Shown here: positions 51,826-62,688 of the stretch, piece after piece
Layout: each line of letters opens with the position of its first letter
How positions within the stretch are numbered: the stretch's first letter is position 1
NCBI GenBank assembly: GCA_030604405.1
Contig: JAUVVY010000024.1
Span: 301 to 64,300, forward strand
DNA length: 64,000 bases
Source: a bacterium
Lineage (GTDB): Bacteria; Armatimonadota; Zipacnadia; Zipacnadales; UBA11051
Reading direction: 5' to 3'
The notes under the pieces: generated by a model
What the model saw: only the letters and a program-made list of their open reading frames with translations
Told to the model about the DNA's origin: nothing
Database searches by the model: none
Position numbers and translations under genes: made by a program

Positions 51826-53076
51826 ATGACAAGTTTTGCGGACATAAATGAGGTTTCCGGCGGCGTGCTGGCCGCGCAAGGATTTGTGGCCGCCGCTGTC
51901 AGCAGCGGCATCAAGCCGCCGCCCGCACTGGACTTGGTGATGATTCATTCCCAATATCCGGCGTCCGCTGCTGCGACCGTCACCCGCAACGTATTCCGCG
52001 CTGCGCCGACATACATCACCGAGGAAGCCGTCACCAACGGCAAAGCGCGCACCATCATCGTCAACTCCGGTAATGCCAACGCCGGCACCGGCCGGCAGGG
52101 AATGAGCGACGCCCGCCAGATGGCCGCACTGGCAGCAGAGGCGACAGGCGTTGAGGTCCTGGAGGTCGTTGTGTGCTCCACCGGCCACATCGGAGACATC
52201 CTGCCGATGGACAAAGTGGCCGCCGGTATCGACCAGCTTGACGGCCGACTCAGCCGCGCGAACCCGGAAGAGATCGCCCGCGGCATCATGACTACTGACA
52301 CCGTGCCCAAGCATTGTGCCGTCGAGTTCACGGTGGGCGGCAGGGGCGCTCGGCTCGGCGGCATCTGCAAGGGCGCAGGGATGATCTGCCCGAACATGGC
52401 CACCATGCTCTGCTTCATCACCACCGACGTGGCGATCGCAGCCACAGCGCTGCAAGACGCCCTCAACTGGTCTGTCGCGCGCTCCTTCAACTGTATCAGC
52501 GTTGACGGCGATATGAGCACCAATGATACCGTCGCGCTGCTGGCTAACGGCCAGGCCGGTAATGAGACGATTACCGGCGCGGTGTCGGAAGATTATGCGG
52601 TCTTCCGCGCGGCGCTGCTGCACGTGACCCAGGACCTGGCGAAGAAGATCGCTGCCGACGGCGAGGGCGCAACGAAATTCGTTACCGTGAAGATCACCGG
52701 GGCGGCCAGCTACGAAGAAGCACGCACGGCCGGCCGCGCGGTGACCAACTACAGCCTGCTCAAGACCGCTATCTACGGCGGCGACTTCAACTGGGGCCGC
52801 ATCGCAGCCGCGGTCGGAAGCAGCGAGGTGCCGTTCGACCCCGATAGGGCAGCCATCAAGATCGCCGGCATCACCGTGTTCGCTGAGGGTAAGGTGCAGG
52901 ACTTCGACCTGGCGCGGGGCCGCGCGCAGATGGCTGCAAAAGAAATCGAGATCGAGATAGACCTGGCCAGGGGCGATGAGTCGCTGACACTGTGGACCTG
53001 CGATCTGACGCCCGAGTATGTGCACCTCAACGCCGAATATGATGCGTCGGACTTGGCCGGGGCAGAGGCAGACTGA
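51826..53076 (+). CDS. argJ: Bifunctional glutamate N-acetyltransferase / amino-acid acetyltransferase
   Basis: ArgJ fold with the autoproteolysis site ATML(CFITTD). Confidence 0.9.
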   Translation: MTSFADINEVSGGVLAAQGFVAAAVSSGIKPPPALDLVMIHSQYPASAAATVTRNVFRAAPTYITEEAVTNGKARTIIVNSGNANAGTGRQGMSDARQMAALAAEATGVEVLEVVVCSTGHIGDILPMDKVAAGIDQLDGRLSRANPEEIARGIMTTDTVPKHCAVEFTVGGRGARLGGICKGAGMICPNMATMLCFITTDVAIAATALQDALNWSVARSFNCISVDGDMSTNDTVALLANGQAGNETITGAVSEDYAVFRAALLHVTQDLAKKIAADGEGATKFVTVKITGAASYEEARTAGRAVTNYSLLKTAIYGGDFNWGRIAAAVGSSEVPFDPDRAAIKIAGITVFAEGKVQDFDLARGRAQMAAKEIEIEIDLARGDESLTLWTCDLTPEYVHLNAEYDASDLAGAEAD

Positions 53077-53097
53077 ACAGAAGAACGGGTGAGATAA

Positions 53098-53983
53098 ATG
53101 GATAAGCACAATAGCTCCGTGAACGGACGTGTGGGCACGCTGATTGAGGCGTTGCCCTACATGCGGAAGTGGGCCGGCAAGACAGTGGTGGTAAAATACG
53201 GTGGCGCGGCGATGACCGACCCGGCCCTGCAGCACAGCGTCATGAAGGACCTGGTGCTTCTGCACTACGTCGGCGTGCGCGTTGTGGTGGTGCACGGCGG
53301 CGGGCCGAAGATTAGCGAGATGATGGAGCGGCTGGGCGAAAAGCCCGAGTTTGTCGGCGGCCTGCGCGTCACCGGCGAAGCAACGATGGAGATCGTCCAG
53401 ATGGTGCTGATCGGCCTCGTCGGCCAGGAGCTGGTGTCGTTGCTCAACGCCGAAGGCGGCCGGGCGGTCGGACTCTCCGGCAAGGACGCCAAGCTCATCA
53501 CCGCCACCAAGAAGCACTCCGACGAAGGCGATCTCGGCTGCGTCGGCGAGGTCGAGCACATCGACACCAAGCTGATTGATGTGCTGAATGACGCCGGCCA
53601 TATCGTGGTGCTGTCGCCCGTCGGGGTCGGCTCCGATTCTGAGAGTTATAACATCAACGCCGATACGGTGGCCTCTGAAGTCGCCGCAGCGCTGCAGGCC
53701 GAAAAGCTGATTATGCTCACCGACGTGGCCGGCGTGCTGCGCGATGTCGCAGACCCCTCAAGCCTCATCAGCGTGATGAATCCTACCCGGGCCCGCCAAC
53801 TCATAAGCGATGGTATCGTCAGCAAGGGCATGATCCCGAAAGTCGAGGCAGGCGTCCAGGCCATCGACAAGGGTGTAACCAGCGCTCACCTGATAGACGG
53901 CCGGGTGGAACACTCGCTGCTGGTGGAGCTTTTCACCGAAGAAGGCATCGGAACGATGATCGCCGCACACGGAGGCACAACTG

Positions 53984-53991
<8 letters not shown>
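53098..53991 (+). CDS. argB: Acetylglutamate kinase
   Basis: Amino-acid kinase family. VVVKYGGAAM and VVHGGGP motifs. Confidence 0.9.
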
Positions 53992-55177
<1,186 letters not shown>

Positions 55178-55345: not shown

Positions 55346-56521
55346 CTACCACATGCCGTGGATCTGGGTGCCACAGAAACGGCAGGCACCGTTGGATTTG
55401 ATGTTGCGGGCAAGGATCTGATAGCCGTCCCGTTTGATCACGATCTGTGCGCAACTGGGGCAATGCGTCGAGGCCAGATCGCTGCCGGAGACATTCCCGA
55501 CATAGACGTACTTGAGGCCCGCCTGGCGGCCGATGTGGCGGCAGCGTCGCAGCGTGTCTATGGGAGTAGGCGGTAGATTCTTCAGCCGGTAGGCCGGGAA
55601 AAAGCGCGAGAAATGTAGCGGTATGTACGGCCCGCCCACCTTCACCAGCCACTTTGCCATCGCCTCGATCGTCTTCGGATTGTCGTTGACCGTCGGCACC
55701 ACCAGATAGACGATCTCCAGCCACTTGCCCAGCGCTACCAGCCGCTTGATGGTGGTCTTGACCGGCTCCAGTTGCCCCGCTGTGTATTCGCGATAGAAAT
55801 CATCTGAAAAGCCCTTCAGGTCAATTTTCACCGCGTCAAGATATGGCGCCAGAGCCAGCATCGGCTCACGGTTGATGCTCCCCGAGGATATCATCACCGA
55901 CTTGATGCCCTGCTGGCGGGCAAGTTTGGCGGTATCGTACATGTACTCGTAAAACGCAATCGGCTCATTGTAGGTGTAGGCGATTGTCGCAACGCCGTTG
56001 GACTTGGCTTTGGACACCAGCGTCTGAGGCGACATGCTGACGAGGCGGTGTTCGGCGCGAAGCTGCTCGGGAGTGCGCTGGGAGATCTCCCAATTCTGGC
56101 AGTCCTTGCAGCGCAGGTTGCAGCCGGCGGTGCCCACCGAAAGCGCCCGGGTGCCGGGGTAAAAGTGAAACAGCGGCTTCTTCTCGATCGGATCTATGTG
56201 CAGGGCCGCCGCCTCGCCATAGACCAGCGTGTAGTACTTGCCGCCACGGTTCTCGCGCACCCGGCAAGCACCCCGCTGGCCGTCGGAAGTTATACATTGC
56301 CACGGGCACAGAGTACACTGGACCCGGTTGCCAGACAGCCGCTTGTAGTACAGCGCCTCGTGCACGCCGGCCCCGCTCGCGGCTTGTGCAGACGGCAGCA
56401 GTCGGCTCAGCCCGGCAGCTCCCGCAGCCAGCCCGACACCGGCCAACGCGGCCTTCTTAAGGAACTCGCGCCGCGTCATGGTCTCTTCGGAGGTATCTTT
56501 TTCGGACTGCTCGCTATCCAT
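55346..56521 (-). CDS. AmmeMemoRadiSam-system radical SAM enzyme with an N-terminal twin-arginine signal
   Basis: CNLRCKDC radical-SAM cluster motif. PFL-activase-like scaffold. N-terminus …MTRREFLKKAALAGVGLAAGAAGLSRLLPSAQAAS is a Tat signal; an alternative start is at 56479. Adjacent to the Memo-AMMECR1 gene. Confidence 0.8.
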   Translation of the reverse strand: MDSEQSEKDTSEETMTRREFLKKAALAGVGLAAGAAGLSRLLPSAQAASGAGVHEALYYKRLSGNRVQCTLCPWQCITSDGQRGACRVRENRGGKYYTLVYGEAAALHIDPIEKKPLFHFYPGTRALSVGTAGCNLRCKDCQNWEISQRTPEQLRAEHRLVSMSPQTLVSKAKSNGVATIAYTYNEPIAFYEYMYDTAKLARQQGIKSVMISSGSINREPMLALAPYLDAVKIDLKGFSDDFYREYTAGQLEPVKTTIKRLVALGKWLEIVYLVVPTVNDNPKTIEAMAKWLVKVGGPYIPLHFSRFFPAYRLKNLPPTPIDTLRRCRHIGRQAGLKYVYVGNVSGSDLASTHCPSCAQIVIKRDGYQILARNIKSNGACRFCGTQIHGMW

Positions 56522-56523
56522 TT

Positions 56524-58086
56524 TCAGTGCTCTTCCGATTCGCCGAAAACCTGGGCGGTGAAGACGTACAGCTCGGTGTTCGGGTCCTTGTAGGCGTCAC
56601 CCGCCAGGCCGGCCTTGTGGCTGCACAGATTCTCCAGCATCTGCTCGCGATTCCAGCCCTGCTCCGGAGCCACCTGCGGCAGATACACCCCGTTGCGACG
56701 GCCCCGCACCACCATTACCCCATGCTTGCCAACCTTGATGTCGGTGTAGCTGGCTACCGGCTCCATGGGTGAAAGCACGCTGATTTCGATGTGCAATTCC
56801 TTCAGCTCGTCGCGCGTCACCGGCGAGAAGCGATGGTCGCGAACCGCCGCCGAAACCGCTGCGTCGCGTACAGCCACTGCCAGCGCATGCCGGGCGATAA
56901 TCTGACCGATGCAGCCGCGCAGCTTGCCGTCCTTGGTAAGCGTGACGAACACCGCCCGCTGCTCGTGCATGGCCGGGTCCGAGGTTGCGATGTCCGGAAG
57001 CGTACCGGTGCCGAGGTGCGCCTTGATACTGCTGCGGGCCAGCTTGAGCAGGTACTGCTGCTGGGCCTTGTCTAGTTCGACGCTTGGGGCGGCGCCAGGT
57101 TCGCCGGAAGAGGTGGCAGCTTTCCGCGCGCCGACGAACACCACGGCCCCGTAGCCGACACAACGGCTCGCACTGCGTGGGTCGGCGTCGGCTGAGTTGG
57201 CATAGTGCAGCATATCGGCTCTGGTGGCTCCCAGCATCTTGGCCGCGCCCATCCCCGCCACCACCGGCCCCAGCCCGCAGGCGGTGCAGTGCAGATTCGG
57301 TATGTCACGGGCCAGCAGCTCCCTGTCAGCGGCATACACGGTATCCACATCAAGGCTGCAGATGGCGTCCAGAATCTCATGGTCAACTGTCTTGGCCTGC
57401 TCGGCAGTCGGAAAATGCGAAAGATCGGTGCTGACCACCAGCAGCGTCTTTTCATTAGCCACCGACGCAATCGCTTGCCCTAGCGGTTGGGTGTTGTGAG
57501 GGCCAAAATCGCTGAACACGATCGGGACGATGGAAAACTCCTCAAGCACCGTCTGCAGGAAGGGAAGCTGCGTCTCCAGGGAGTGCTCGCCGTCGTGGGC
57601 GGTATCACTCATCTTGAAGCGACTGCTCGCGGCCAGCAACTTTTCGTTCATCTCTTGGCTGACAGGGACCTTGCCCAGCGGCGTCTCCCAGAAATCGTGC
57701 GAACTCAGCGCCGCACCGCTCAGCGGCATGCCACGGTGCGACGGGCCGACGAGAATCACCGTATCGTAGCTGCGGTCTTTGAGAATGGCGTAGGAATAGC
57801 CCGCGACGGCTCCTGAGAATTCGTAGCCGGCATGTGGGGCGATGACGGCGATGATGTCATCGGTTATCTCGGGCACCTGCGCGGCAGCAAGGTAGCCATT
57901 GACATCTGCTGCAAGCCCTTCGGGATCGGCCCTGTAAAACTGGCCCGCTACACACGTAGCCCGCACCGAGGCGGTCTCGGCAGGCGCAGGCGGCTGGGCG
58001 GCGGCTTGCTGAGGTTCGAGGTTCCTGGAGCAGCCTAGAATGGCGATCAGCACCAGGCCGGGCAAATGCTGAGCGGCGCGTTTCAT
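56524..58086 (-). CDS. Memo-like (AmmeMemoRadiSam protein B) fused to an AMMECR1 domain (protein A), with a lipoprotein-type signal
   Basis: APHAGYEFSG Memo motif. C-terminal RGCIG AMMECR1 motif. N-terminus MKRAAQHLPGLVLIAILGCS has a lipobox-like motif. Confidence 0.75.
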   Translation of the reverse strand: MKRAAQHLPGLVLIAILGCSRNLEPQQAAAQPPAPAETASVRATCVAGQFYRADPEGLAADVNGYLAAAQVPEITDDIIAVIAPHAGYEFSGAVAGYSYAILKDRSYDTVILVGPSHRGMPLSGAALSSHDFWETPLGKVPVSQEMNEKLLAASSRFKMSDTAHDGEHSLETQLPFLQTVLEEFSIVPIVFSDFGPHNTQPLGQAIASVANEKTLLVVSTDLSHFPTAEQAKTVDHEILDAICSLDVDTVYAADRELLARDIPNLHCTACGLGPVVAGMGAAKMLGATRADMLHYANSADADPRSASRCVGYGAVVFVGARKAATSSGEPGAAPSVELDKAQQQYLLKLARSSIKAHLGTGTLPDIATSDPAMHEQRAVFVTLTKDGKLRGCIGQIIARHALAVAVRDAAVSAAVRDHRFSPVTRDELKELHIEISVLSPMEPVASYTDIKVGKHGVMVVRGRRNGVYLPQVAPEQGWNREQMLENLCSHKAGLAGDAYKDPNTELYVFTAQVFGESEEH

Positions 58087-58167
58087 CGCAATGTCCTCGT
58101 GAATTGTAATGTTTCCCGTGTGTATATCTTCGCCACGGCCCCGGCAATATCCTTGTCGCATCTGTCG

Positions 58168-59316
58168 CTAACGGCTCCATTTGCGGACGATGGTAATCAA
58201 TATCAGGCTCATTGTCAGCAGGCCGACTACGACTTCCAGGCCGGCCAATGTCTTGCTTATGCCAGTAGCCGGCTGCATGTCGCCATAGCCAAGGCCGGTA
58301 AAGGTCACGACGCTGAAATAGACTGCATTGAGGAAGTTAAACACCCCGCCAATAGTCGGCGCCCACGCCACACCAGGACCGATCTGCACGTTCGCCGCGG
58401 TGTCAGTGAATCCACACAAATAGGCCTGGATTGTGGCAAAGATAAGCACCAGTAGCACGGCGATTTCGACCAGCCACCACGGCCGCTCCCCGTAGCCAAA
58501 GGAACGGTACATAAGCCACCACGCCAGCCGTTGGTACCACGGCGCCTGGGGGTGGTTGGGGGTCGCTATTGACATCTGCGCCCGCTTGCACTCCATCTCG
58601 CGGATGAAGAATTCCCCTGCCATCTGGTAATCCCCGGATTCGTGATAGCTCTGCTTTATCTTGCGACATGCGGTCTCCCCGGTCCTGAATAGCGGCAGTG
58701 CCGCTTCCTGTTTGCCTTCTCTCCTGGCGGCACGGGCCTCGCGTTCTTCGCGAATCACTATACTGCCGTCGTCAGCCCACGTCACATGATCCAGCCTGCT
58801 CTGCGGATCGAGTTGAACGCCTGAGAGCCGTGCGTTGGAGAGGTTAGCGCGGCGCAGATCTACCTTGCCTTCCAGCCTGGCGTCTGTCAGGTCGGCATGT
58901 TGCAGGTCGGCAAAGCGTAGGTCAGCGTCTTGCAGGTTGGCGTCCGTCAGATCGGCGTTATGCAGATCGGCTCTGACCAGGAATGCGTTTTGCAGGTTGG
59001 CGTCCATCAGTTGGGCATTTCGCAGTTTAGCGCCAAATAGCCTGGCATCTTCCAGGTCCGCCTCCCACAAGAGTGCACCGCGGTCTGCCGCCCGCTCTAA
59101 CTTTCGCTGAAGCTCACTCGGATCGCGCTCGCCCTCGTAATGAAATATGCAGCGCGGCTCGGCCAGCTCAGTGCCAAGATGGCGGGGCAAGCCGCAGCGG
59201 GTAGCTCTTCCGAACTCGTACTGGCACCGCTCGCCATGGTCTGGCCCGCCTTCGGGCCACTCGTCTGCCGGCCATCGCGCTTCGTTGTTCAAATACTCGA
59301 TACTGTGATCTGACAT
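58168..59316 (-). CDS. Pentapeptide-repeat domain fused to a two-transmembrane K+-channel-like pore
   Basis: ADLxxANLxxA(D/N)L pentapeptide repeats across residues about 85–165. C-terminal two helices flank TFTGLGYGD, a selectivity filter with Gly in place of the first Thr. Confidence 0.7.
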
Positions 59317-59339
59317 AGCAGATTCTCCATCTCAATTCA

Positions 59340-60005
59340 TCACTGGCCGAGGTTGACCCGCATCCCGATGAACGCACCGAAGCGGCAGCGGGCCGGCTGC
59401 TTGATCACGAGCTGGCGGAGGCAAACCGCGCCGCTCCAGTAGATGTCGGCCTGCTTGGTATTTGCGGCTGTGGCCTGGCGGCATAGCCGAGCAAGCTCGC
59501 CGGGTGTGAAGAACCGGGCGTCGCTGTAGCTATTACGCTTTAACAGGCCGGTGAATTTCCGCCATCTGCCCAGGAGACTCTGCTTATTCAGCACTCCCAG
59601 GATGATGCTTTCGCGGGCTACGCGGGCCGCCTCGCTCAGGGCCTTGTCCGGGTCATCAACGAACTCCAGCGCAGTGACTATCAAGGCAATGTCGAAGCTG
59701 TTGTCGGCAAATTCCAGATTCTCAGCGGACATCTGCTGCACCGTGGCTTTGTCGCCGAGTTTGGCCCGAGCTGCCTGCAGCATGGCATCGGAGTTGTCTA
59801 TGGCCGTGACCTCGTAGCCCATTTCGACCAGCCATAGGGAGAAATGGCCGGTGCCGCAGCCGATGTCGAGGATGCTCTTGCCCTGCGCCTGGCCCAGTAG
59901 TTCCGCCAGCAGTTGCTTTTCGAGCCTGTCGGCCCAGCGCCCAAAGCGCGTCTGGTACCAGCGGTCGTAGCGTCTCGCAATCCCTTCGGGAGAGTCTTGT
60001 GTCAT
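59340..60005 (-). CDS. Class I SAM-dependent methyltransferase (Methyltransf_11-like)
   Basis: ILDIGCGTGHFS motif I and acidic motif II. Start taken at MTQDSPEG. Confidence 0.75.
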   Translation of the reverse strand: MTQDSPEGIARRYDRWYQTRFGRWADRLEKQLLAELLGQAQGKSILDIGCGTGHFSLWLVEMGYEVTAIDNSDAMLQAARAKLGDKATVQQMSAENLEFADNSFDIALIVTALEFVDDPDKALSEAARVARESIILGVLNKQSLLGRWRKFTGLLKRNSYSDARFFTPGELARLCRQATAANTKQADIYWSGAVCLRQLVIKQPARCRFGAFIGMRVNLGQ

Positions 60006-61128: not shown

Positions 61129-62688
61129 ATGAACCGGGGAAAAATCCTGCGCAGGTTGAGCCAGGTGGTATTCCTGGTCATTTTTGTGCTGCTGCTGCGC
61201 GCCGCGAAATGGCCCCTGCAAGACACAACTGCGGTGAGCCTGTTTCTGCGGGCCGATCCCCTGGCGGCACTGGTTACGGCTCTGGCACTGCCCCACTTCA
61301 CCAGCGCCGGCCAGCTCCTGTATCTGTTCGTCCCCGCGCTGGTCTTGCTGGTGCTGACAGCGCTGTTGGGGCGCTTCTTCTGCGGCTGGATATGCCCCCT
61401 GGGCACTTGCATTGACATCTTCCATACGGTGCTGGTGCGTCCGTTGAGGAAAAAGGACAGCCAGCGCGCCAACTGGCCGCAGTTGAAGTACTACATACTC
61501 GTCGCCATGCTCATCGCCGCGTTCTTCGGCACGCAGATCGCGTGGTTTCTCGACCCCATGCCGCTGATCACCCGCAGCTTCGCCACGGCGTTGCATCCGG
61601 CCCTGCTGAAGCTGCAGAACTGGCTGGTTGCGCATCCTGACGGGCCGCTTGCAGTACTGAGCTCGCGCCTGAGCCTCGAGGCAGTACGCGGCCGCAGCTT
61701 TGCGCTGGCCTGGCCGGTGGTGGGCTTTTTTGCCTTCGTGCTGGCACTGGGCTTCATCAGCCGGCGGTACTGGTGCCGCAACCTCTGCCCGCTGGGCGCT
61801 CTGCTGGCATTTGTGGGTCGGCATGGAATCTGGCGGCGGCATGTTACGGAGGCATGTGTGCGGTGCGAGCGCTGTATTAGCGACTGCAAGATGGGCGCTA
61901 TACCCGCCGACGAGCCGAGCCAGACGCGGACGCCGGAGTGTATCCTGTGTTACGACTGTGTCTCGTGCCCGCAGGTCGGGATCACTCGCATCAGCATATC
62001 GGTGGGCGGCGAGGGCATAGAGACCGGCACCGATGTGACGCGGCGGCGGCTCTTGGGAGCCGTGGGTGCGGGAGTGGTCTATGGCCTGTTAGCGCGCAGC
62101 CCACTGCCCGCTGCCCGCAAGGCCCGGGCGACACAGCACCAGTTCCTCATCAGGCCGCCCGGGGCCATCGTGCGCGACGAAAACGGCCAAATCGCCCGCA
62201 TGATGACCGAGAGCGAATTCCGCTCGCAGTGCCTGCGCTGCGGTGAGTGCATGAAGGCTTGCATCACCAACGTGATTCAGCCCGCCCTGCTCGAAAGCGG
62301 CCTTGACGGTCTCTATACGCCGGTCATCGTCGGGGCGGCCGGCTGGTGCGAGCAAACCTGCAATGTCTGCGGGCAGGTCTGCCCCAGCGGGGCCTTGCGG
62401 CCCTTCACACCAGAGGAAAAATATGGCATCCTGATCGCCGAGGCGCGCATTGACCAAACCAAGTGCCTCTCCTGGGGCAAAGGCGATGACTACCTCCTGT
62501 GCCTGGTGTGTGACGAGATGTGTTCGTATAATGCCATCACCGCCGAGGATACCGATGGCAGCGGGCAACTGCGCCCCGTAGTGCATCCGGATATCTGCGT
62601 CGGCTGCGGCATCTGCGAGTACAATTGCCCGGCCCAACCCGCAAGGGCGATTAGAATCTATCGCAGGGACGATCGGGATGCAACTTAG
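61129..62688 (+). CDS. NapH/MauN/NosR-like membrane-bound polyferredoxin
   Basis: N-terminal transmembrane region with FCGWICPLG and CRNLCPLG motifs. C-terminal C-x2-C-x2-C-x3-CP ferredoxin motifs. Confidence 0.7.
   Translation: MNRGKILRRLSQVVFLVIFVLLLRAAKWPLQDTTAVSLFLRADPLAALVTALALPHFTSAGQLLYLFVPALVLLVLTALLGRFFCGWICPLGTCIDIFHTVLVRPLRKKDSQRANWPQLKYYILVAMLIAAFFGTQIAWFLDPMPLITRSFATALHPALLKLQNWLVAHPDGPLAVLSSRLSLEAVRGRSFALAWPVVGFFAFVLALGFISRRYWCRNLCPLGALLAFVGRHGIWRRHVTEACVRCERCISDCKMGAIPADEPSQTRTPECILCYDCVSCPQVGITRISISVGGEGIETGTDVTRRRLLGAVGAGVVYGLLARSPLPAARKARATQHQFLIRPPGAIVRDENGQIARMMTESEFRSQCLRCGECMKACITNVIQPALLESGLDGLYTPVIVGAAGWCEQTCNVCGQVCPSGALRPFTPEEKYGILIAEARIDQTKCLSWGKGDDYLLCLVCDEMCSYNAITAEDTDGSGQLRPVVHPDICVGCGICEYNCPAQPARAIRIYRRDDRDAT

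Follow-up and report, generated by a model that had tools for sequence, protein, structure and literature searches.

Conservation of Memo and AMMECR1 extends from archaea to humans, and human AMMECR1 has also been studied in disease contexts. As to their function, a modification of nucleotide bases or isoprenoids was reportedly proposed by Burroughs in 2019. Human MEMO1 has been reviewed in disease contexts (PMC7694686). Two sources (PMC6393860; bioRxiv 10.64898/2026.08.21.746120) still give the biochemical function of Memo, AMMECR1 and their radical SAM enzyme as unknown, and one published proposal is RNA base modification (PMC2034487). The locus described here shares with the canonical, cytoplasmic AmmeMemoRadiSam system the matches to TIGR04335, TIGR04336 and TIGR04337, the adjacency of the genes and the cysteine and catalytic columns, but it differs in that every component carries an export signal, Memo and AMMECR1 are fused, and the exported forms make up their own clade with their own recurrent neighbours. 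The canonical family models begin only after the signals, at residue 58 of the radical SAM enzyme and at residue 67 of the 545-aa open reading frame of the partner (residue 42 when counted from ATG 58086).

Three further groups of proteins offer a comparison. NapG, HybA, DmsB and the Rieske proteins are iron-sulfur proteins exported by the Tat pathway that serve as electron carriers; like the enzyme described here, they combine a twin-arginine signal with the need for iron-sulfur clusters to be inserted in the cytoplasm before export, but no radical SAM enzyme, with its dependence on a diffusible co-substrate like SAM, is to our knowledge among them. AtsB/anSME, the anaerobic sulfatase-maturing enzymes, are radical SAM enzymes with a periplasm-bound client; they do their work in the cytoplasm, ahead of the client's export, and have no signal peptide, whereas here the signal is on the enzyme itself. 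Finally, the NapH-like and NosR-like extracytosolic electron-transfer systems with ApbE-flavinylated FMN-binding domains of Meheust et al. 2021 (PMC8238504) resemble ours in that relatives of the radical SAM enzyme are fused to FMN_bind and Fer4_5 domains with a flavinylation motif, and in that a NapH-NapG-like gene lies nearby; they differ in that the NapH-like protein found here has no FMN_bind domain. The partners listed in that study are nitrous oxide, organohalide and nitrite reductases and an alcohol oxidase, and radical SAM and Memo are not mentioned.

The original prediction had described four minus-strand genes, two of them with export signals, in the window (the whole stretch of 64,000 nucleotides that was analysed), and the analysis confirms these genes at the same coordinates. 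The features are:

55346 to 56521, minus strand: AmmeMemoRadiSam radical SAM enzyme, 391 aa, with a PFL-activase-like fold
56381 to 56521, minus strand: twin-arginine signal peptide of the radical SAM enzyme, residues 1-47 (TIGR01409 match and conservation in homologues)
56524 to 58086, minus strand: Memo-AMMECR1 fusion protein, 520 aa (PF01875, PF01871, TIGR04336, TIGR04335)
58030 to 58086, minus strand: lipoprotein (Sec/SPII-type) signal of the fusion protein, MKRAAQHLPGLVLIAILG followed by C (sequence and relatives)
58087 to 58167, minus strand: leader of 81 nt preceding the Memo-AMMECR1 gene (alignment with the relative L082)
58168 to 59316, minus strand: fusion of pentapeptide repeats and a two-transmembrane K+ channel with a GYGD filter (Pfam)
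59340 to 60005, minus strand: class I SAM-dependent methyltransferase, 221 aa (Methyltransf_11, E = 1e-24)
61129 to 62688, plus strand: NapH-like module fused to a NapG-like polyferredoxin (NCBIfam NapH/NapG, Pfam Fer4_5, motifs)

The radical SAM enzyme matches TIGR04337 with 369.9 bits (cut-off 220) over residues 58-390, and together with the matches of its partner to TIGR04335 and TIGR04336, all above cut-off, this upholds the assignment to the AmmeMemoRadiSam system. The segment CNLRCKDC contains the CX3CX2C motif (C134, C138 and C141), which is invariant in the family alignment, and two additional four-cysteine sets, one N-terminal (C69, C72, C76 and C86) and one C-terminal (C354, C357, C380 and C383), occupy columns that are invariant or nearly so across family members. 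Cysteine and catalytic columns are identical between the exported and cytoplasmic clades. In the AF2 model (pLDDT 93.4) a confident domain begins at about residue 51, with residues 1-50 of low pLDDT lying outside it. The closest solved fold is that of PFL-AE (3CB8, 3C8F and 8FO0; TM-score 0.77-0.81 normalised to the target), 3CB8 and 8FO0 being the nearest PDB entries, and it holds the same CX3CX2C site, but PFL-AE is cytoplasmic, shares only 16-18% identity with the enzyme and has neither of the extra four-cysteine sets. From the conserved motif and fold we predict a SAM-cleaving radical SAM activity. An identity as glycyl-radical activase was rejected: TIGR02493 gives 57 bits where its cut-off requires 232, matches to PFLA, YjjW and NrdG are weak and far below the family cut-offs, only the fold resembles PFL-AE, and no glycyl-radical enzyme gene is found near the radical SAM gene.

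Directly upstream, the gene combining the Memo and AMMECR1 families ends 2 nt before the ATG of the radical SAM enzyme, a spacing which suggests that the two are translationally coupled; the same adjacency is seen in 37 of 80 species-level loci and in the close relatives L081-L086. Fusion of the two families in one reading frame, as predicted, is borne out by both models: the Memo part (about 57142-57954) matches PF01875 with E = 3e-58 and TIGR04336 with 251.5 bits (cut-off 26), and the AMMECR1 part (about 56545-57048) matches PF01871 with E = 5e-55 and TIGR04335 with 176.9 bits (cut-off 99). The translation contains APHAGY, GPSH, EHSLE, DLSH and LRGCIG, which we take to be conserved Memo/AMMECR1 motifs. 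The best start, ATG 58086, has a GAGGA ribosome-binding site 7 nt before it and is not the first ATG of the reading frame, which lies at 58161. This start yields the N-terminus MKRAAQHLPGLVLIAILGCS, in which MKR-AAQHLPGLVLIA-ILG-C combines a charged n-region, a hydrophobic h-region and a lipobox (criterion [LVI][ASTVIL][GAS]C), the predicted site of lipidation being Cys19. The lipobox cysteine is kept in all six close relatives (L081-L086), in agreement with the lipoprotein-type signal that had been proposed, and lipidation and cleavage by Lgt/LspA are predicted. Among adjacent Memo-AMMECR1 fusions from other phyla, 37 of 38 have a strongly hydrophobic, Sec-type N-terminus; there the signal is kept, but the lipobox cysteine is not always present.

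The N-terminus of the radical SAM enzyme reads MDSEQSEKDTSEETM-TRREFLKK-AALAGVGLAAGAAGLSRLLPSAQA/AS, the slash marking the predicted cleavage site. It has the build of a Tat signal, with a long acidic n-region, TRREFLKK, an h-region rich in Ala and Gly, a basic residue in the c-region and AQA/AS, and it scores 22.3 with the Tat model TIGR01409 (cut-off 16.7). Among the 120 closest homologues, 112 have the motif, in many phyla and down to about 50% identity, with the consensus [T/S]-R-R-[E/D]-[F/M]-L-[K/R], and 85 of these 112 have A-x-A after it. The twin-arginine signal of the original prediction thus stands; the comparison of orthologues, in which those 112 keep the N-terminal extension, gave no evidence for an internal start. 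Since the closest homologue (93% identity) has Leu at the position of the second Met, ATG 56521 is the true start. A six-frame scan of the window found a convincing RR with a hydrophobic stretch only here and at one internal site of the NapH-NapG-like gene, besides three weaker RR matches in other reading frames; rare in the window and conserved in homologues, the motif is not due to chance. Furthermore, the 12-residue hydrophobicity maximum of the h-region is 1.78, compared with 2.52 for the Sec-type signal of the partner, and across homologues the mean signal hydrophobicity is 1.70 for the radical SAM enzymes (Tat-like low) versus 2.63 for the partner fusions (Sec-like; Mann-Whitney p = 6e-18). 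An iron-sulfur protein leaving via Tat and a clusterless partner leaving via Sec would be the pattern expected of genuine export, and we predict Tat-dependent translocation of the enzyme.

Judging by this conservation across homologues, the signals on the enzyme and its partner are not a local oddity. Indeed, in a neighbour-joining tree of 149 TIGR04337 family members the signal-bearing enzymes group together in a single clade (48 of 51 terminals). Recurrent neighbours of this clade are a membrane aminopropyltransferase-like protein, a DUF362 protein with a Tat signal, DsbD_2 and NapH-like genes; by our reading of the neighbour table the DUF362 gene lies directly upstream in roughly 20 loci. 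Five clade members (P0121, P0125, P0126, P0131 and P0133) have a Sec-type signal or a polytopic module and no RR motif. These would need either an unfolded iron-sulfur domain to cross the membrane or another topology, which counts against export.

With regard to the electron supply, the NapH-NapG-like gene lies 3.8 kb upstream of the four-gene cluster and is divergently transcribed. Its NapH-like part is a membrane iron-sulfur module with two CX3CP motifs, joined to the NapG-like part through the internal twin-arginine-like segment TRRRLLGAVGAG, and the protein is a candidate transmembrane electron conduit for an exported radical SAM enzyme. The gene also accompanies the system in L081 and L082, and NapH-like genes are found near the system in 5 of 80 other loci. 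In three relatives (P0126, P0131 and P0146) NapH/NosR-like modules are fused to the radical SAM domain itself, and in some relatives DsbD_2 membrane modules are, DsbD_2 or NapH-like proteins also being encoded nearby. P0136 and P0147 consist of a transmembrane segment, FMN_bind and the radical SAM domain, with no predicted membrane helix between the latter two, and all five FMN_bind-radical SAM fusions carry the ApbE flavinylation motif D-x-[IV]-[ST]-G-A-T. Flavinylated FMN-binding domains have been described as extracytosolic (PMC8238504). The NapH/NosR and FMN_bind fusions and the neighbouring gene suggest a reductant route, although the restriction of NapH-like linkage to those five loci, the window, two close relatives and three fusions counts against it.

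Because every part of the system bears an export signal, the site of action of the radical SAM enzyme appears to be extracytoplasmic. We consider it probable that the locus holds a two-gene, envelope-located AmmeMemoRadiSam operon, with export by Sec and Tat, electrons from a NapH/NosR-type protein, and the methyltransferase and channel genes as bystanders. The gene identities, the signals with their conservation, the single clade and the domain fusions are observed; the export itself, the electron route, the SAM source and the substrate we infer as follows. The Memo-AMMECR1 fusion would leave unfolded via Sec and be lipid-anchored at Cys19. The radical SAM enzyme would fold and gain its iron-sulfur clusters in the cytoplasm, then be transferred across the membrane by Tat and probably be cleaved after AQA. 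As the catalytic residues are unchanged, the exported pair would keep the chemistry of its cytoplasmic relatives, and with this chemistry taking place outside the cytoplasm the target would therefore be reachable from the periplasmic side, i.e. either some molecule of the membrane or envelope or else the partner protein. The most likely route for electrons would be through a membrane iron-sulfur protein of the NapH/NosR type, either alone or together with a flavinylated FMN-binding domain in the role of a periplasmic flavodoxin. For SAM, our best guess is that it would be bound before export and either used once, in an activase-like manner as in PFL-AE, or regenerated.

We put forward tentatively, and with slightly more doubt than confidence, the wider reading that this is a member of the first extracytoplasmic radical SAM family, exported folded via Tat, with a lipid-anchored Memo-AMMECR1, electrons from NapH/NosR-type proteins and flavinylated FMN domains, SAM carried out bound or supplied by an unrecognised exporter, and an ancestral function of the triad on a membrane or envelope molecule or partner and not on RNA. 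Several points count against export. SAM and low-potential reductant are cytoplasmic commodities, and we found no SAM supply route for the exported enzyme. We know of no extracytoplasmic radical SAM enzyme, and none was found in literature searches.

The SAM and reductant problem would disappear if the N-termini served to target or anchor the proteins at the membrane, with the radical SAM domain staying on the cytoplasmic side, using cytoplasmic SAM and reductant and acting on a membrane substrate; the Tat-like peptide would then be an anchor, or the protein a non-exported client of the Tat pathway. Such an arrangement would also suit the relatives with hydrophobic N-termini lacking RR or with their domain behind polytopic membrane modules, and the anchor of P0125, which is more positive on its C-terminal side and so by the positive-inside rule suggests an N-out anchor. 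We nevertheless regard it as unlikely: the enzyme has a full consensus Tat peptide with A-x-A and an h-region less hydrophobic than the Sec-type signals of the partners (1.78 against their mean of 2.63), the lipobox would place Memo-AMMECR1 outside, FMN_bind domains with flavinylation motifs are fused directly to the radical SAM domain with no helix between, and Tat-signal DUF362 genes often adjoin.

Returning to the two-gene operon, the original prediction had instead treated the four genes as a single functional unit, in which methyltransferase and channel would work alongside the AmmeMemoRadiSam proteins. The genes share a strand, a sequence scan found no terminator-like sites between them, and the gaps are 23, 81 and 2 nt (the 6 of the predicted range of 6-81 bp arises from a start at ATG 58161 in place of ATG 58086), so co-transcription of all four is possible. 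The same order recurs in L081, and in L062 about 280 nt separate the end of a methyltransferase homologue from the opening of the reading frame that follows and holds a Tat-radical SAM enzyme. Against this, methyltransferase and channel, the latter with pentapeptide repeats and Ion_trans_2 by Pfam, are both absent from L082, whose radical SAM enzyme is 81% identical and whose flanking synteny is the same, as well as from L083-L086 (59-73% identical). Among the 80 species-level loci, two have a methyltransferase homologue, one a channel homologue and none the pair. Furthermore, about 75 nt of the leader directly before the Memo-AMMECR1 start are conserved with L082, which lacks the two genes, and a promoter-like site, itself weak evidence, lies at 58218-58190 just upstream of the Memo-AMMECR1 gene. 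The leader has no Rfam match, and the stability of its predicted fold does not exceed that of shuffled sequence. The expression signals of the pair itself probably lie in it. A four-gene unit is thus quite unlikely, and on the comparative evidence the methyltransferase and channel are a lineage-specific two-gene indel upstream, bystanders and not parts of the system. The idea that the signals are start-codon artefacts of cytoplasmic proteins beginning downstream, for which there is a GTG at residue 53 of the radical SAM enzyme just before the family-model alignment begins, has next to no chance and is in practice refuted by the upstream peptide, whose protein sequence 112 of 120 homologues retain, its match to the Tat model and the equally conserved signal of the partner.

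The underlying system is already known, but a putatively exported variant of it is new; the literature we could search held no paper describing one. The existence of a large single clade in which all components are predicted to be exported and the catalytic residues are unchanged limits the possible substrates of the family. If export is real, radical SAM chemistry can no longer be assumed to take place only in the cytoplasm, and one has to ask by which route SAM and low-potential electrons get to the periplasm. The NapH-like and flavinylation-based electron-transfer systems, for most of which the reactions are unknown (PMC8238504), would in addition gain a new type of client.

Four genes on the minus strand of the window are arranged head to tail, with intergenic gaps of 23, 81 and 2 nt.

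Genes of the region, with neighbours in the window
59340-60005 (-), class I SAM methyltransferase, 221 aa (Methyltransf_11, E = 1e-24)
58168-59316 (-), protein joining pentapeptide repeats to the pore of a two-helix K+ channel (GYGD filter), 382 aa
56524-58086 (-), Memo-AMMECR1 fusion (matches to TIGR04336 and TIGR04335)
55346-56521 (-), radical SAM enzyme (rSAM), 391 aa (match to TIGR04337)
51826-55177 (+), argJ-argB-argD (ArgJ, acetylglutamate kinase and acetylornithine aminotransferase), arginine biosynthesis
61129-62688 (+), NapH-like membrane module (two CX3CP motifs, 2x[4Fe-4S]) and NapG-like polyferredoxin in one protein, 519 aa
62678-63610 (+), EamA/DMT-family transporter, sharing 11 nt with the 3' end of the NapH-NapG-like gene

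Pfam and NCBIfam firmly identify the Memo-AMMECR1 fusion and rSAM as an AmmeMemoRadiSam system, as the original prediction had it: all three NCBIfam models score above their cut-offs, with 369.9 bits for rSAM against TIGR04337 (cut-off 220), and 251.5 and 176.9 bits for the fusion against TIGR04336 (cut-off 26) and TIGR04335 (cut-off 99), respectively. By every sequence criterion tried, the enzyme and its partner are members of this system, for which RNA base modification was proposed as a function in 2007 (PMC2034487); AMMECR1 was still given as uncharacterised in papers of 2019 and 2026. Only 'AA' lies between the stop codon of the fusion and the ATG of rSAM, which suggests that translation of the two genes is coupled. 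At its 3' end the rSAM gene converges with argJ-argB-argD, a junction kept in one closer relative of the window locus (L082) and not in another (L081).

Export signals had been predicted on both proteins, a twin-arginine signal on rSAM and a lipoprotein-type signal on the fusion, and both predictions held up. The N-terminus of rSAM reads MDSEQSEKDTSEETM-TRREFLKK-AALAGVGLAAGAAGLSRLLPSAQA followed by AS and scores 22.3 against the Tat signal model TIGR01409 (cut-off 16.7). The alignment to TIGR04337 opens only at residue 58, and in the AlphaFold model (pLDDT 93.4) the first 50 residues are of low confidence, the confident part beginning at about residue 51. A homologue that is 93% identical (P0001) has Leu at the position of the second Met of rSAM yet keeps the entire N-terminal peptide, arguing that ATG 56521 is the true start. 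In the fusion, the first ATG of the ORF (58161) is without a ribosome-binding site and ATG 58086 has GAGGA ahead of it; from the latter the protein begins with MKRAAQHLPGLVLIAILG followed by C, a lipoprotein signal, whose lipobox Cys is retained in all six closer relatives. When all 64 kb of the window were scanned in six frames, convincing cases of an RR motif with a hydrophobic stretch after it came up at two sites only, the rSAM N-terminus and an internal site of the NapH-NapG-like gene, along with three weaker matches in other ORFs.

Comparison of orthologue N-termini, the check suggested with the original prediction, extended the observation well beyond the window. Among the best 120 database homologues of rSAM, down to about 50% identity, 112 carry an RR motif and a hydrophobic stretch, with the consensus [T/S]-R-R-[E/D]-[F/M]-L-[K/R], a textbook Tat motif, and an A-x-A after it in 85 of the 112. 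Where a source is named, these homologues stem among others from Armatimonadota, Aminicenantales, Desulfobacterota and KSB1, and the best species-level match is an Armatimonadota MAG (75% identical). In a neighbourhood sample of 80 loci from species-level genomes, with Solibacteraceae, Bryobacterales, Prolixibacteraceae, Caldithrix and Desulfobacca relatives among the sources, a Memo-AMMECR1 fusion adjoins rSAM in 37, and 37 of the 38 Memo N-termini that we looked at are strongly hydrophobic directly ahead of the Memo domain. The maximal hydropathy of the h-region averages 1.70 in the rSAM signals and 2.63 in those of the partner (Mann-Whitney p = 6e-18), which matches the known difference between Tat and Sec signals. 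Export of an iron-sulfur protein by Tat and of its clusterless partner by Sec is the pattern to be expected if the system truly works outside the cytoplasm.

That partners in cytoplasmic systems are without signals is supported indirectly, since the family models start past the signals and since locus L036 encodes a signal-less Memo and locus L055 a paralogue without the extension. At L036 (3707-9134) an exported Memo-AMMECR1 fusion and unfused, signal-less Memo and AMMECR1 genes lie beside one Tat-type rSAM gene, and at L055 (6673-9119) an rSAM paralogue without N-terminal extension adjoins a Tat-type one. Two extended rSAM paralogues stand in tandem at each of L059 (4028-6323) and L077 (6809-9098).

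With the mature domain alone as query, a search of 1.84 billion cluster representatives returned 1558 clusters at E <= 1e-30. The best 150 of these comprise 93 without N-terminal extension, 28 with RR signals, 8 with other hydrophobic N-termini, 9 with other, non-hydrophobic or uncertain extensions and 12 with long N-terminal fusions, a few members of the last three groups having RK, KR or degenerate RR variants. Sequences with a signal or anchor group together when the core domains are placed in a neighbour-joining tree, making up 48 of the 51 terminals of one clade, and extensions are almost entirely missing from the rest of the tree. Catalytic residues are the same in the exported and cytoplasmic groups. 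The cysteines of CX3CX2C and of the N-terminal and C-terminal Cys4 sets are equally conserved in both, and only two positions are clade-specific, weakly so. The exported form would be a distinct subfamily with unchanged chemistry. The system in the window is no peculiarity of this locus; it is typical of an exported clade with a wide distribution. The nearest solved structures to rSAM are those of PFL-activating enzyme (3CB8, 8FO0 and 3C8F; TM-score 0.77-0.81 on the target); the PDB holds no structure of the rSAM family itself. In one cytoplasmic-type homologue (P0175) the rSAM domain is matched in two separated stretches, interrupted by an intein with a LAGLIDADG endonuclease domain, and a split match probably also occurs in the cytoplasmic-type P0185, P0251, P0261 and P0265.

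The other part of the original interpretation, a functional unit of four genes, did not stand; the observation itself is confirmed, and the export signals hold. The closer relative L081 (rSAM 87% identical) has the same four genes. The methyltransferase and channel genes are absent from L082 (81% identical), whose flanks agree with those of the window (EamA, NapH-NapG-like and Usp to one side, argD-argB-argJ-argC to the other), and from the further relatives L083-L086 (59-73% identical), three of which have an operon of Memo-AMMECR1, rSAM and then a membrane protein of 754-774 aa with a spermine/spermidine-synthase domain. Of the 80 loci, two have a methyltransferase homologue, one has a channel homologue and none has the pair together. 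The stretch of about 75 nt just ahead of the Memo-AMMECR1 start aligns with the intergenic region of L082, which assigns this leader to Memo-AMMECR1 and rSAM and places the two extra genes upstream of it. Judged by this gene content, METHYLTRANSFERASE and the K+ channel do not appear to be part of the exported system. We found no intrinsic terminator on the coding strand between the four genes, and read-through transcription from the methyltransferase promoter is possible. A riboswitch or structured leader upstream of Memo-AMMECR1 was considered and rejected, as Rfam has no match there and the region folds no better than shuffled sequence (z = 0.67). The sole Rfam hit in 55.0-60.5 kb is a sub-threshold match to K_chan_RES (58180-58293, minus strand; 24.6 bits, gathering score 51) inside the channel coding sequence, almost certainly a coding-sequence similarity and not an RNA element.

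Clustering of the neighbours in the 80 loci yielded four recurrent partners: the fusion, an aminopropyltransferase-like protein, DUF362 and DsbD_2.

Examples of recurrent partners in other loci
L084 8169-10448; L085 8172-10496; L086 8148-10412; about 30 further loci such as L004 9123-11264: PF01564 membrane protein beside the Tat-rSAM gene
L008 6970-7998: DUF362 protein, itself bearing a twin-arginine signal (MRRRAFFKSL...), immediately upstream of the Tat-rSAM gene
L030 10470-11120; also L011, L014, L017, L024 and others: DsbD_2 gene beside the system

The membrane aminopropyltransferase-like protein (35 of 80 loci by clustering; about 710-820 aa) consists of about 6-7 helices, a spermine/spermidine-synthase domain (PF01564) and about six more helices, hydropathy and the positive-inside rule giving anything from 5 to 7 helices before the soluble domain, and its gene adjoins Tat-signal rSAM genes in many phyla. 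A DUF362 (PF04015) gene with a Tat signal lies directly upstream of rSAM in roughly 20 of the 80 loci, a figure read from the neighbour table, as the 27-locus DUF362 cluster takes in antisense ORFs. In the Aminicenantes-type loci L004, L005, L009 and L040 the cluster consists of DUF362, rSAM and the aminopropyltransferase-like gene, and Memo-AMMECR1 was not found within their flanks of up to 8 kb on each side (L009 being a 5.3-kb contig). The DsbD_2 (PF13386) membrane protein occurs in 14 of 80 loci by clustering, mostly Omnitrophota; it could act in thiol-based electron transfer or as a transporter, since the family also includes ArsG-type efflux permeases. By tblastn, the window contains none of the aminopropyltransferase-like, Tat-DUF362 and DsbD_2 genes. 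The EamA transporter belongs to a family that includes known SAM carriers, and in L081 and L082, too, an EamA gene is next to the NapH-like one; neither EamA nor Usp has a homologue in the 80 loci, and we therefore regard them as local synteny only and not as conserved partners.

An exported rSAM would need electrons, for which the fusion proteins suggest a source. Two homologues (P0126 and P0131) combine FMN_bind, a NapH/NosR-like Fer4_5 membrane module, one further helix and rSAM, and P0146 has DsbD_2 ahead of the same layout. P0122 and P0141 join DsbD_2 to rSAM; P0136 and P0147 have one N-terminal helix, FMN_bind and rSAM, with no helix predicted between the latter two. All five FMN_bind fusions contain the flavinylation motif D-x-[IV]-[ST]-G-A-T. 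In the window, the NapH-NapG-like gene is found 3.8 kb upstream of Memo-AMMECR1, divergent from the four-gene cluster, and is retained at the same place in L081 and L082; NapH-like genes also occur in 5 loci of the 80-locus sample (Acidobacteriota and Omnitrophota). The two halves of the window's NapH-NapG-like protein are linked by an internal twin-arginine-like segment, TRRRLLGAVGAG / TRRRLLGAVGAGVVYGLLA, conserved in L081 and L082. The protein looks polytopic, and Tat might insert its last helix together with the C-terminal iron-sulfur domain, so that each face of the membrane would have iron-sulfur clusters. Given these fusions and the NapH-like genes nearby, electrons probably reach the exported enzyme through NapH/NosR-type conduits, with the FMN domain, where present, standing in for the flavodoxin that serves cytoplasmic radical SAM enzymes.

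The supply of SAM could be met in several ways. The enzyme might take up SAM ahead of Tat export and use it a single time, as an activase would, an option that fits the PFL-AE-like fold; SAM might instead stay with the enzyme and be regenerated in each cycle, as it is in lysine 2,3-aminomutase; or there might be an unrecognised exporter, for which the aminopropyltransferase-like and DsbD_2 membrane proteins are conceivable candidates. Alternatively, some or all enzymes of the exported clade could sit on the cytoplasmic face. The main argument for this view is that members with Sec-type signals or without RR leave the passage of the iron-sulfur domain through the membrane unaccounted for. Five exported-clade members (P0133, P0125, P0124, P0128 and P0135) have Sec-type or lipoprotein signals in place of RR, among them signal-Memo-AMMECR1-rSAM, anchor-rSAM-Memo-AMMECR1 and CBM_11 or beta-propeller fusions; P0133 is a triple fusion in the order Memo, AMMECR1 and rSAM with a Sec-type signal in front. 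In P0126 and P0131, helices without RR precede the rSAM domain.

Our literature searches, which did not extend to Burroughs et al. 2019 (JBC), a paper that may mention signal peptides, brought up no publication in which a radical SAM enzyme is periplasmic or targeted to Tat. As far as we have checked, the Tat signal on rSAM is visible in databases, automatic annotation pipelines flagging such signals too, and has gone undiscussed. ApbE-flavinylated domains and NapH-like proteins have been described as extracytosolic electron-transfer modules with mostly unknown client reactions, in a study that mentions neither radical SAM nor Memo (PMC8238504). The actual finding is the exported two-gene system, as read from these sequences, and the joining of rSAM to flavinylated and NapH-like modules in its relatives makes it directly testable.
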